A stretch of 36,853 bases of DNA from a virus. Below, in pieces: positions 16,601 through 30,559 of the stretch (positions are counted from its first letter, which is position 1; each line of letters opens with the position of its first letter). The notes under the pieces are model-generated. The model did not search any database. It was not told the DNA's origin and saw only the letters and a program-made list of their open reading frames with translations. The stretch lies in the UHGV virus genome UHGV-0090257; one strand, written 5' to 3'. The translations under genes and the position numbers were made by a program.

Positions 16601-16816
16601 AACCTCGTCTAGTTGTTCGCCATAGATTCAGTGGCAGGCGGTGACGAGTCCGCTTTTCGGGAGCTACCCTAGCCACTGCTTTATTCTATCCAATGTCTTT
16701 CCATCAGTCCGCCACCACAAAGAATCTTTTTTGCCATAAGGCAGGAGGTTCATCTTTCAGTGGCTGCCAGTGTTATTTCCCCACTTACTGGCTTGGGTTG
16801 TTTCGCTGTACTGCCG

Positions 16817-26472: not shown

Positions 26473-26751
26473 TCAGGCCTCGAAGAATTCGCCGTTCTTC
26501 GGGGCTTTTTCTTTTGTCAGCATTCTTGCTACTTTCTTAGCCAGTTCCGCCAACTCCTCGTCTTCAACACCCCATTCAAGAACAGCCAGAAGCATTCCCA
26601 TTTTTGGGATGAAGCTGTCTTTCCATCGCGAAATTTGCGATTCATTAATCCCTAACGCGTCGGCAACCTTTCGCTGACCACGTACAGCAATTCGATTCAG
26701 GATGTTGCTTGTAATTGCATTCGCTTTCTTGCGAGTACTTGTAAGTTCCAT
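26473..26751 (-). CDS. cII: CII-like lysogeny establishment activator
   Basis: From the internal Met: ...GINESQISRWKDSFIPKMGMLLAVLEWGV... aligns with the lambda CII core (VDKSQISRWKRDWIPKFSMLLAVLEWGV); SD AAGGAAAT upstream; the longer six-frame ORF overlaps nutR. Confidence 0.85.
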   Translation of the reverse strand: MELTSTRKKANAITSNILNRIAVRGQRKVADALGINESQISRWKDSFIPKMGMLLAVLEWGVEDEELAELAKKVARMLTKEKAPKNGEFFEA

Positions 26752-26783
26752 ATGTAAGTATTTCCTTAACAAATAAGAAGTTA

Positions 26784-26801
26784 TGCGCATCAACTTATGC
26801 G
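26784..26801 (-). terminator. Hairpin between nutR and cII (tR1 position)
   Basis: Perfect GCGCAT-aagttg-ATGCGC stem; the downstream sequence is only partly U-rich. Confidence 0.35.
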
Positions 26802-26807
26802 CGTTGT

Positions 26808-26853
26808 ATTCCCGCATTTCGGCGGGAATGAGGACCATGACTGTTAAAGAGCG
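26808..26853 (-). promoter_or_regulatory. nutR (boxA plus boxB)
   Basis: Minus-strand sense boxA CGCTCTTTAACAG and boxB hairpin TTCCCGC-CGAAAT-GCGGGAA, between cro and cII. Confidence 0.7.
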
Positions 26854-26859
26854 GTGTTA

Positions 26860-27054
26860 CTATTTGTTTTTCTTGTTGCTTGGGAAAGGACGAACTTCCT
26901 CTCCAATCACACTGCCATCAGGCTTTACCGTAACCATGATGTTACGGCCTGCCAGAATGGCCTTGCTGATAGCGCACTGGATTACACCAAAGTCACTGGC
27001 TGCTTTAGCCTGTCCATGGATTTTGGCGTAATCGGCAAGTGTCATTCGAATCAT
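26860..27054 (-). CDS. cro: Cro repressor
   Basis: About 64 aa from the ATG at 27054; ...[35 protein letters not shown]...[16 protein letters not shown] aligns with lambda Cro; SD GGAGA upstream. Confidence 0.85.
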
Positions 27055-27083
27055 ATGCACTCTCCGTTATTAACCATGAACAA

Positions 27084-27154
27084 AGAATACTACAGGTATT
27101 CAAAGCAATCAATACTCAGGGTATTTTTAGTTTAAGTACTTTAGCTATTAGAAT
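27084..27154. promoter_or_regulatory. Right operator region with divergent pR and pRM
   Basis: Operator-like dyads AATACTACAGGTATT (27086..27100), AATACTCAGGGTATT (27111..27125) and weaker AGTACTTTAGCTATT (27135..27149); pR -10 TATTCT and -35 TTGATT on the minus strand; candidate pRM -10 TAGAAT at 27149..27154 about 7 nt before the cI ATG. Confidence 0.6.
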
Positions 27155-27160
27155 TAAGCT

Positions 27161-27877
27161 ATGGAAAATAAAAAATCACTGACGACAGAACAGCTCGAAG
27201 ACGCTAAGCGGCTTAAGGCTTTGTATGAGTCAAAAAAGAAAGAATTGGGAATAACCCAATACTCAATCGCTGATGAACTGGGTATCACCCAAGGAGCGGT
27301 AGGGCATTATCTTAATGGCAGAAACGCGCTAAACGTTGAGGTTGCATCTGGTTTTGCACGACTGTTGCAAGTCTCAATTGCTGATTTTAGCCAGTCAATT
27401 GCTGCCAAGGTTGCAGAACAGGCAGAAAGCCTTAAGAGCGATGCCAACGTAAGGTATGCAGGGGAATACAGAGCAGGAAAGAGGTATCCGGTGTTAAGCA
27501 GTATCCAGGCTGGCTCGTGGTGTGAAGCATGCGAACCATACACCATTAAAGACATAGATGTTTGGCTTGAGTCTGACGCGCATATTCAAGGTAATGCGTT
27601 CTGGCTTAAAGTGGAAGGTGATTCAATGACGGCACCGGTTGGGTTAAGCATTCCAGAGGGAACATTCGTTCTTTTCGATACCGGAAGGGAGGCGATCAAC
27701 GGCAGCTTGGTCATAGCAAAACTTTCTGACTCTAACGAAGCAACATTCAAGAAGCTGATAATCGACGGCGGAAATAAATACCTCAAGGGACTTAATCCTG
27801 CATGGCCTCTCGTGCCAATCAATGGAAACTGCAAGATTATAGGCGTTGCAATTGAGACAAAACTAAGGCTGGTTTGA
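27161..27877 (+). CDS. cI: CI-type prophage repressor (HTH plus S24 LexA-like autopeptidase domain)
   Basis: 238 aa; N-terminal HTH (ITQYSIADELGITQGAVGHYLNG), A-G cleavage site in QAGSW, catalytic Ser in GDSM and Lys in FKKL. Confidence 0.9.
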   Translation: MENKKSLTTEQLEDAKRLKALYESKKKELGITQYSIADELGITQGAVGHYLNGRNALNVEVASGFARLLQVSIADFSQSIAAKVAEQAESLKSDANVRYAGEYRAGKRYPVLSSIQAGSWCEACEPYTIKDIDVWLESDAHIQGNAFWLKVEGDSMTAPVGLSIPEGTFVLFDTGREAINGSLVIAKLSDSNEATFKKLIIDGGNKYLKGLNPAWPLVPINGNCKIIGVAIETKLRLV

Positions 27878-27894
27878 TCACGCAAGGGGCGATT

Positions 27895-28263
27895 ATGGTT
27901 GGAACAGCTATAGCAAGCTTTTTTGGGATGTTGGCAATCTCGACAATTTACGGCTTAGCGCATGCTTTTATTGCGAAATCTCTATCAGAAAAAATAAGCC
28001 AGGCTTGGGCGCATAGATTAGCTCGTTTCATGATTCTAGTGATCATAGCAATACAAGGGATATCTGCATTTATCCTCTATGGTTCAAGCTTATACCTGTT
28101 GTATCAAGGCGCGACATTTACGCCTTACACCAGTGATTACGGAACGCTATACGATGGTAGTGAAGACATCTCTATGGCTTGGATCGTCTTTGGTTTATCT
28201 ATGGCCGTGTCTGTTGTAGCAGACATCATTAAGGTAATTCTCGTCTTAACCTTCGCTGACTAA
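27895..28263 (+). CDS. Small polytopic membrane protein co-oriented with cI (lysogenic accessory gene in the rex slot)
   Basis: About 122 aa from the ATG at 27895 (SD AAGGGG); at least three hydrophobic helices; starts 18 nt after the cI stop and ends before OL. Confidence 0.6.
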   Translation: MVGTAIASFFGMLAISTIYGLAHAFIAKSLSEKISQAWAHRLARFMILVIIAIQGISAFILYGSSLYLLYQGATFTPYTSDYGTLYDGSEDISMAWIVFGLSMAVSVVADIIKVILVLTFAD

Positions 28264-28350
28264 ACCATAATCCCGGCAGCAATAGCTATCGGGATCCACT
28301 TCACATATCCCGCATAAAAAACACTGAACAAGCAGACACCGAAAAAAATA

Positions 28351-28437
28351 AATATCCTTTGTATTCATTTGCTTATCATTATTTCACCAAAAATAAATAC
28401 CTTGGGTATTTACACAATAAAATACCTACAGTATTCT
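28351..28437. promoter_or_regulatory. Left operator region with pL
   Basis: Dyads AATATCCTTTGTATT (28351..28365), AATACCTTGGGTATT (28396..28410) and AATACCTACAGTATT (28421..28435), the same family as OR; pL -35 TTTACA (28409..28414) and -10 TATTCT (28432..28437) pointing toward N. Confidence 0.6.
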
Positions 28438-28482
28438 TTAGCCATCAGCAGGACGCTGGAAGCCAAACGGAACAGATTGGCA

Positions 28483-28524
28483 GGCTCTTTAACATTGATG
28501 GGATTGTCCCGCCGAAATGCGGGA
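28483..28524 (+). promoter_or_regulatory. nutL (boxA plus boxB)
   Basis: boxA GGCTCTTTAACA followed 12 nt later by hairpin TCCCGC-CGAAAT-GCGGGA, the same boxB core as nutR. Confidence 0.7.
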
Positions 28525-28838
28525 ACCAAAGAGTAGTTGGCTTTGGGGTGACGTGAAGTGCAGCTGCACGACGGCAACCGGAAGATAAGCACCCGGCGCG
28601 TCACCGCCAAAGTCAATTCCATAGGCGTTATGCAGCCGCCACCATATTCAAGAAAGCTGCACAAGAGGTAGGAGGATTTATGTGAATACTTACATTCAAT
28701 TGAGAGATTAATTAAATAGAACTGATCGAGCAGAGTCCATGAAGGCTCATAAATGCTCTTCCATCCCCGTCTAATTGGCGGGGAAGGAAACCACTTTGTA
28801 ATAAAAAAAATTCCAAAGTTGTTTCATCGGAGGTCAAC

Positions 28839-29138
28839 ATGACAGTAGTCATTACATATCTGGCTGACGATAACGCCAGAAATCGCCGCAGAGCACGCAG
28901 ACAGGCTCAACGTGAACAGGCAATGCAAGAGCAGCGACTGGCGCGAAAAATTGCGCTAAAGCTCTCTGGTTGCGTCAGAGCAGATAAAGCAGCATCACTC
29001 GGAAGCCTTCGCAGCAAGAAGGCAGAAGAAGTCGAGCGTAAACAGAACCGTATTTACTACCGCAAGCCCCGCAGTGAAATGGGTGTGACATGTGTTGGTC
29101 GCCAGAAAATGAAATTAGGCAGCAAACCACTTATTTGA
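28839..29138 (+). CDS. N: N-type transcription antiterminator
   Basis: 99 aa; N-terminal arginine-rich motif NARNRRRARRQAQREQA; first gene downstream of pL/nutL; SD GGAGGT. Confidence 0.8.
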   Translation: MTVVITYLADDNARNRRRARRQAQREQAMQEQRLARKIALKLSGCVRADKAASLGSLRSKKAEEVERKQNRIYYRKPRSEMGVTCVGRQKMKLGSKPLI

Positions 29139-29146
29139 GGTGATAT

Positions 29147-29338
29147 ATGGAACGTAAATTTGAAATTTGGTTGGATTCCGGCGCAAACATTCATTCTTGC
29201 AAAAAGACAGTTGTAACACTCGGTGATCTTGGCTTATCCGAGAATGAGTGGGATGAAATGGATCGGGACGAAAAAGACGAAAACATGCGTGATGTAGCAT
29301 TTGAAACGCTTGATTGGGGATGGAAGGAAATTAAGTGA
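29147..29338 (+). CDS. Hypothetical protein (N-proximal accessory ORF)
   Basis: 63 aa acidic ORF in an AT-rich segment immediately after N. Confidence 0.5.
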   Translation: MERKFEIWLDSGANIHSCKKTVVTLGDLGLSENEWDEMDRDEKDENMRDVAFETLDWGWKEIK

Positions 29339-30349: not shown

Positions 30350-30424
30350 GTGCGGCTTTACCGCATACCAATAACGCTTCATTCGAGGCGTTTTCGTTAT
30401 GCAATCAAATATAAGGAGTTACCC

Positions 30425-30559
30425 ATGATGCACTTTCAGCTCGCGGGTAGCGGCGTCATGTCCGCTTTCTACCCGCACGAATCTGAATTATCACGCCGAG
30501 TTAAACAATTAATCAGAGCAGCAAAGAAACAACTGGAGGCGTTATGCGCAATGAAATAG
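30425..30559 (+). CDS. cIII: CIII-like protease (FtsH) inhibitor
   Basis: 44 aa from the ATG at 30425 (SD AAGGAG); MMHFQLAGSGVMSAFYPHESELSRRVKQLIR resembles lambda CIII (MQYAIAGWPVAG..ESLLERITRKLR) in pattern and position. Confidence 0.6.
   Translation: MMHFQLAGSGVMSAFYPHESELSRRVKQLIRAAKKQLEALCAMK

Follow-up and report, generated by a model that had tools for sequence, protein, structure and literature searches.

hkaS, a candidate membrane exclusion gene between cI and OL in the HK620-type immunity region

The immunity region and the hkaS reading frame

The window, by which we mean the whole stretch of 36,853 nucleotides analyzed here, is a mosaic phage or prophage of the P22-like (Lederbergvirus) type, with virion genes approximately 96% identical to those of Sf6 and HK620 and an immunity region of the HK620 type (Table 1). 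Megablast and GenBank annotation identified the reading frame that follows cI as hkaS of coliphage HK620 (AAK28867), which has been carried as "unknown" since 2001. The window protein matches PHROG 6534, a family of unknown function, from end to end (residues 1–122 of 122, E = 3.3e-78), and is 96.7% identical in amino acids to HK620 HkaS, with equal length and the same position between cI and OL; its closest allele is that of HK140 (98.4%). The gene is annotated as hypothetical in HK140, HK630, mEpX2, HZ41, phi296, phi367, 611R6, and two Stx2c phages. The initial annotation of this DNA recognized no family for the gene; it is already catalogued, both as hkaS and as PHROG 6534, and is a candidate for study and no surprise in itself. 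Our literature search found no functional study of hkaS or its HK620-type relatives, the matches to "hkaS" being to a herbarium acronym.

Table 1. Coordinates of features in and around the cI-to-N interval of the window.
Feature	Position	Strand	Basis or remark
cII	26473–26838	-	HK620-type immunity region
cro	26860–27054	-	Maps onto annotated HK620 cro; 97% identical to HK620 cro
OR1–OR3, form AATACYNNNRGTATT, carrying pR and pRM	27086–27100, 27111–27125, 27135–27149		Pattern search and HK620 annotation
cI repressor, 238 aa	27161–27877	+	HTH_3 and Peptidase_S24 (Pfam E = 5e-24 and 8e-10)
cI-hkaS spacer, 17 nt, with Shine-Dalgarno AAGGGG at 27884–27889	27878–27894	+	Direct sequence reading
hkaS, 122-aa protein, predicted three-TM inner-membrane	27895–28263	+	ORF, PHROG 6534, AF2, hydropathy
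Stem-loop, arms AUCCCGGCAGC/GCUAUCGGGAU, no U-tract	28270–28295	+	MFE and shuffle test
OL3 (degenerate); OL2; OL1	28351–28365; 28396–28410; 28421–28435		Similarity to OR sites
pL	-35 TTTACA at 28409, -10 TATTCT ending at 28437		Promoter scan
nutL	Between pL and N		Mapped from HK620 annotation
N antiterminator, first pL-operon gene and right border of the slot	28839–29138	+	PHROG 271 (E = 2e-36); HK620 annotation

The window repressor shares 99.6% identity with HK620 cI and ends at the TGA at 27875–27877. As had been described, the 122 codons of hkaS open on the same strand 18 nt after this stop, with 17 nt in between, at the ATG at 27895, and run to the stop codon at 28261–28263. Five nucleotides separate the Shine-Dalgarno sequence AAGGGG from the ATG, and every divergent lineage keeps a Shine-Dalgarno of the AAGGA type upstream of hkaS. 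No Shine-Dalgarno was seen in the sequence upstream of the cI start (27161), suggesting that cI is probably translated leaderless from pRM, as in lambda. A longer, 129-aa version of the hkaS frame starting from the TTG at 27874, which overlaps the cI stop and would imply translational coupling, was rejected on comparative grounds, because the divergent homologues are all 122 aa long and, in the Salmonella lineage, an in-frame TAA closely precedes the ATG. By this sequence comparison the start codon of hkaS is the ATG at 27895. On the opposite strand, a 40-aa cysteine-rich ORF (28246–28368) has its start within OL3 and overlaps the 3′ end of hkaS. The record of phage Hf4s annotates a shorter form of it, but divergent loci do not conserve the sequence it occupies, so the ORF is probably spurious.

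An operator pattern search of the window gave 11 matches against 4.2 expected, six of which were clustered and correspond to the OR and OL sites. The OL sites match the three OR sites, and the locus alignment showed that OL/pL is kept in all divergent loci while the flanks diverge. The gap from the hkaS stop to the first operator is 87 nt, in agreement with the statement that the ORF ends just before OL. The OL3 assigned by similarity (AATATCCTTTGTATT) is kept in all divergent loci and lies 45 bp from OL2. The annotated OL3 of HK620 maps elsewhere, to 28372–28388, and it is the annotated "tIMM" of HK620 that maps onto the operator-like site at 28351–28365, not onto a hairpin.

Several further features were observed around the locus. 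Relative to HK620, the window carries a 203-bp insertion at 28618–28820, between nutL and the Shine-Dalgarno of N; a diverged version is present in HK140, with a 41-aa ORF annotated there. The insertion holds a boxA-like TGCTCTT followed by a hairpin (CCCCG-N9-CGGGG) and an A-run, motifs that would fit either another nut-like site or a terminator placed upstream of N. An 84-aa ORF at 28413–28664 (- strand) showed a weak match to PHROG 6589, and an ORF at 30350–30559 (+ strand) encodes a CIII-like sequence (MHFQLAGSGVMSAFYPHESELSRRVKQLIRAAKKQLEAL) from an internal Met; the cIII of HK620 is annotated as truncated by an internal stop. An Rfam scan of the window at the gathering threshold returned the int-alpA sRNA as its sole match (16617–16679, - strand, 45.1 bits against a gathering score of 35.8), and no structured RNA at the hkaS locus.

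A scan of the interval between cI and pL detected no promoter-like or terminator-like site on the + strand, and a simple terminator scan of the + strand from 26800 to 29200 was also negative. These scans bear out the earlier claim that no classic terminator lies 3′ of the ORF, and they showed nothing to break off pRM or pRE transcription through this cI-strand gene. On the model of lambda, we infer that cI and hkaS are read as one transcript from pRM and pRE, the latter being annotated in HK620.

A stem-loop begins 7 nt 3′ of the hkaS stop (MFE -13.7 kcal/mol, z = -3.85, 60% of the ensemble), and none of 200 shuffles was as stable (0/200). Comparably stable hairpins of unrelated sequence are found at the same place in other loci (L003 of the Salmonella lineage, z = -3.38; L007, z = -2.43). 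The sequence around these hairpins is unalignable between lineages, and all of them are without a U-tract. The stem-loop is probably a conserved 3′-end element of the cI-hkaS transcript, acting as a non-canonical terminator or as a stabilizer. Alternative ATCCCG/CGGGAT hairpins had been proposed here; the repeats are indeed present, but they do not form real alternatives, as the stem-loop in Table 1 dominates and the second CGGGAT/ATCCCG pairing yields a weak stem of 6 bp closing an 11-nt loop. Riboswitch-like switching between hairpins was rejected on this dominance and on the wider 121-nt fold, which is unremarkable (z = -1.3).

Distribution of hkaS and selection on the cI-hkaS pair

Divergent HkaS homologues were found in a Hafnia-type lineage (83% identity), in Salmonella (61%), and in an unassigned metagenomic lineage (52%). 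Each of them has exactly 122 aa, and its gene lies 17–20 nt after a cI of 238–240 aa and before N. The same gene order, with cro pointing away from cI and hkaS, and OL/pL and then N following hkaS, is kept in four lineages (97%, 83%, 61%, and 52% HkaS identity). Between cI and OL, hkaS is the sole conserved ORF, so the earlier remark that it has no RexA partner stands. Every homologue found directly follows a cI of the HK620 type, and in the phage collection the 16 records with a cI of at least 99% identity are exactly the 16 records with hkaS. These phages span podoviruses (HK620, Hf4s), siphoviruses (HK140, HK630, mEpX2), and Stx phages, so that what hkaS follows from phage to phage is the immunity module, not the virion type. 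Full-length hkaS is present in 146 of 5426 complete E. coli genomes (~2.7%), always on the chromosome, and its hosts include commensal, ETEC, STEC, and animal isolates. No member of the family was found on plasmids or outside prophages on chromosomes, and the family belongs to one prophage immunity type. Next to cI relatives at 65–71% identity, the slot is empty or holds an unrelated soluble ORF (Serratia phage OS31, Erwinia phage 49, Cronobacter phage ENT39118).

Selection was measured by Nei-Gojobori counts. Between the deep lineages pS is ~0.8, that is saturated, for both cI and hkaS, whilst pN is 0.27–0.33 for hkaS versus 0.07–0.08 for cI. Two Salmonella alleles of hkaS differ at synonymous sites only (pS 0.118, pN 0), and among the E. 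coli alleles dN/dS is mostly 0.10–0.24; the closest pair, HK620 and HK140, gave 0.61 on very few substitutions. These counts indicate that hkaS is a real gene under purifying selection, changing about four times faster than cI. As dS is saturated for both genes, the linkage of the pair is of long standing. Tight linkage to cI is not by itself proof of function, since anything located between cI and OL is inherited along with the immunity specificity, and the faster change of HkaS could reflect the lax constraint typical of transmembrane helices and not an arms race. Recent acquisition was rejected as a reading of base composition, the signature being weak (GC content of 41.7% for hkaS, 45.6% for cI, and 46.2% for the window).

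In Hf4s, hkaS (locus L008, 1201–1568) has a 1-nt deletion in an A6 run (GAAAAAATAAG) at codons 32–34, causing a frameshift at codon 33–34, and in the record only the 77 codons distal to it are annotated. Either this allele is a pseudogene in nature or the homopolymer was misread during sequencing. The Hf4s lysogen is the only phenotyped lysogen with an hkaS locus, and we considered its phenotypes as a natural experiment; this was rejected, because the frameshift makes that lysogen uninformative on HkaS.

Predicted membrane architecture and homology searches

Hydropathy analysis of HkaS gave three hydrophobic segments (approximately residues 3–26, 45–71, and 93–119), supporting the earlier description of a polytopic membrane protein. 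In every member of the family loop 1 (residues 27–44) carries charges of +4/-1 and loop 2 (residues 72–92) charges of 0/-4; by the positive-inside rule, these loop charges place loop 1 in the cytoplasm and loop 2 in the periplasm, with the N-terminus out and the C-terminus in. An AF2 model built on an eight-sequence alignment (pLDDT 89.9, pTM 0.76) has helices at residues 2–29, 31–38, 41–74, and 89–121, and a small beta-hairpin at 78–86. HkaS is thus predicted to be a three-helix inner-membrane bundle with N-out/C-in topology, and in the model there is almost no soluble mass that could form an enzyme or sensor domain.

Across the homologues 36 positions never vary, among them K33, W38, H40, and R44 of the cytoplasmic loop, Q54, S65, and Y67 of TM2, D110 and K113 of TM3, and a C-terminal ILVLT. 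Conservation is highest in the cytoplasmic loop (9 of 18 positions invariant) and lowest in the periplasmic loop (4 of 21). The protein ends ...LTFAD, with 3 residues after TM3.

Database searches left HkaS in an orphan family, as the initial annotation, which recognized no family, had anticipated. The Pfam scan returned a single sub-threshold match, to TssN (E = 0.041, 13.7 bits against a cutoff of 30.3), NCBIfam gave no match, and PADLOC-DB v2 returned 0 defense families at E up to 10. No PDB sequence was found with the HkaS profile, and a BFVD fold search had no match at E up to 0.001. In PHROGs the protein matched PHROG 6534 alone. HkaS also matched none of the exclusion families that Pfam and PHROGs represent (SieA, SieB, Imm, Cor, and others), and no transporter, stress-protein, or regulator family. 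A word-indexed search of 5.8 billion clusters yielded 12 clusters, all enterobacterial, and when 1.84 billion representative proteins were searched exhaustively by HMM, two matches resulted, one of them a fragment. Beyond these 12 clusters and two profile matches no remote homologues came to light.

Three specific relationships were examined and rejected. Homology to RexB received an hhalign probability of 0.6% and a best BLASTP E of 3.7 (the Pfam scan gave no match to a Rex family), and homology to Hex of phage 434 an hhalign probability of 0.06%. Class I holins share the topology of three TM segments with N-out/C-in, and this likeness is of topology alone: HkaS has no holin match in Pfam or PHROGs, its gene is located in the immunity region, and only the short tail noted above follows TM3.

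Possible roles of HkaS and comparison with known systems

The interval between cI and N is a mosaic and a common site of lysogen-expressed moron loci (PMC7067206, PMC8585504). It is a transcription unit that is kept on in lysogeny, and it has yielded RexAB, BstA, and Hex. By its cI strand, its position between cI and OL, and the lack of a detected intervening promoter or terminator, hkaS would belong with rexAB, hex, and bstA. The initial annotation compared this slot with that of lambda; the comparison holds as far as lysogen-expressed genes are concerned, with rexAB and bstA as precedents (PMC8585504, PMC7067206), but to restrict the slot to exclusion genes is too strong, as hex occupies it in 434, Sf6, and Huey, and it is empty in mEp213 and in Serratia phage OS31. 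An exclusion role for hkaS is a fair hypothesis, one of several that the slot allows, and the gene is an attractive candidate for a new exclusion family.

As an accessory gene, hkaS is a genuine part of the HK620-type immunity module. On the reading that we favor, it would form the second cistron of the cI message, which would start at pRM in the lysogen and at pRE while lysogeny is being established, and its translation would use its own strong Shine-Dalgarno. The protein is predicted to insert into the inner membrane as the three-helix bundle described above, presenting a conserved basic amphipathic loop to the cytoplasm and a variable acidic beta-hairpin to the periplasm, with the Asp110/Lys113 pair inside helix 3. 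There it may protect the lysogen against other phages, a role suggested by position and architecture only. Its mechanism would be interference with DNA entry, by a constitutively tolerated blocker that has no sensor and does not work as a trigger of depolarization; the slot position and the nearly all-membrane architecture of 122 aa lead us to favor such a constitutive block over abortive infection. That HkaS is a lysogen-expressed membrane exclusion factor, with a bias toward a DNA-entry block, is our leading but tentative interpretation, standing somewhat below an even chance. Counting against exclusion are the lack of similarity to any known exclusion or defense protein, and the presence in the same slot of a non-exclusion gene (434 Hex), or of nothing, in related phages.

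A stronger version would have HkaS found a sequence-orphan family of single-component inner-membrane exclusion proteins, maintained in a single repressor lineage of enterobacterial lambdoid and P22-like phages from a time before synonymous saturation, and acting via the three-helix bundle and its intramembrane Asp/Lys pair by a mechanism unlike described defense systems. That mechanism could poison the route by which DNA enters through the inner membrane, or it could be a leak that is self-contained and gated by infection. Taken as a whole we regard this version as rather doubtful.

It is unlikely that HkaS is instead a single-component abortive-infection effector, a latent pore or ion channel resembling RexB and working without RexA, which infection would open so that the membrane potential collapses and the infected lysogen is sacrificed. 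The slot is that of rexAB, the protein is polytopic with an invariant intramembrane Asp110/Lys113 and polar residues Q54, S65, and Y67, and its most conserved part, the cytoplasmic loop, could be a gate or sensor. Against this, HkaS has no similarity to RexB and three TM segments, not four; it lacks a partner gene and would have to sense anything with about 18 cytoplasmic residues; and no PADLOC abortive-infection model matches. An unregulated, constitutive pore-former would also be costly, yet the gene is intact in the 146 E. coli genomes.

The strict and ancient linkage to one repressor lineage might alternatively point to an accessory of the lysogeny circuit, which would tune the establishment or stability of HK620-type lysogens by modulating FtsH/HflKC (control of CII) or by damping induction in the manner of Hex. 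Hex of 434, made from the pRM transcript, stabilizes the lysogen against RecA-stimulated repressor cleavage and so provides a precedent in the slot (PMC3564112). HkaS would also be made from pRE during establishment, and the conserved basic amphipathic cytoplasmic helix is in keeping with such a role. However, HkaS has no similarity to Hex, which has an N-terminal signal-like sequence and no TM bundle, and the position inside the OR-OL module explains the linkage mechanically. Divergence four times faster than that of cI and Cro is unexpected for a partner of a conserved switch, and the gene is absent beside cI relatives at 65–71% identity. We consider this explanation improbable.

As regards Hex itself, its loci lie at 2409–2813 in the 434 record (L012), 2108–2512 in that of Sf6 (L014), and 2109–2513 in that of Huey (L016). 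The 434 product starts like a signal peptide (MIRIAALLSILLTTSANSEC...), and the Huey gene at this position, of the same 405-bp length, is labeled as a PagP lipid A acylation protein. Both the signal-like start and the PagP label sit oddly with the cytoplasmic anti-RecA activity reported for a Hex fragment.

Equally improbable, in our judgment, is a lysogenic-conversion protein that serves host fitness and is unrelated to phages, altering envelope physiology through stress or antimicrobial tolerance or through transporter modulation. Non-defense morons expressed in lysogens do exist, such as lambda lom and bor (PMC7067206), and hkaS is kept in commensal, ETEC, STEC, and animal isolates under purifying selection; but the protein matches no transporter, stress-protein, or regulator family, and the gene is confined to one prophage immunity type and was never seen on a non-prophage chromosome or a plasmid. 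Last, a hitch-hiking ORF with no present function is very improbable indeed: any sequence between cI and OL travels with immunity specificity and the natural Hf4s allele is frameshifted, but the frame, the 122-aa length, the topology, and the 36 invariant residues are kept across lineages with saturated synonymous sites, and the Salmonella alleles have a pN of 0 against a pS of 0.118.

HkaS occupies the slot in a whole immunity group that includes HK620, HK630, HK140, mEpX2, and several Stx2c and EHEC phages. If it excludes phages, it would be a very small (122 aa), homology-free membrane defense protein that current defense finders miss, with relevance to phage therapy and to the ecology of Stx phages. 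If it tunes lysogen stability, it would be a second and unrelated example of the principle represented by Hex.

Among characterized systems, lambda carries rexAB in the same slot, and HkaS resembles RexB in slot, strand, and being a small polytopic inner-membrane protein, with co-transcription with cI being likely for HkaS from the layout of the locus. Lambda RexB has four TM segments. HkaS differs from it in length (122 aa against 144 aa), in its three predicted TM segments, and in having no sequence or profile similarity; in addition, and unlike the rexAB locus, hkaS has no adjacent gene for a RexA-like sensor, and no internal promoter was detected by the scan. Like 434 hex and BTP1 bstA, hkaS is encoded directly downstream of the repressor. 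Both of these genes are expressed from the repressor promoter (PMC3564112, PMC8585504), and transcription of bstA from the cI promoter was seen under each of 17 conditions (PMC7067206, PMC8585504). BstA and Hex are both unrelated to HkaS, and Hex, which lacks a TM bundle and starts with a signal-like sequence, acts on repressor cleavage. In kind, HkaS is like P22 SieA, T4 Imm, and HK97 gp15: very small, nearly all membrane-embedded, encoded by a single gene, and without an enzymatic domain. It has no detectable homology to these three lysogen- or early-expressed proteins, whose genes are located elsewhere in their genomes. For P22 SieA, the single protein suffices, and its proposed targets are ejection proteins at the inner membrane (PMC10883804).
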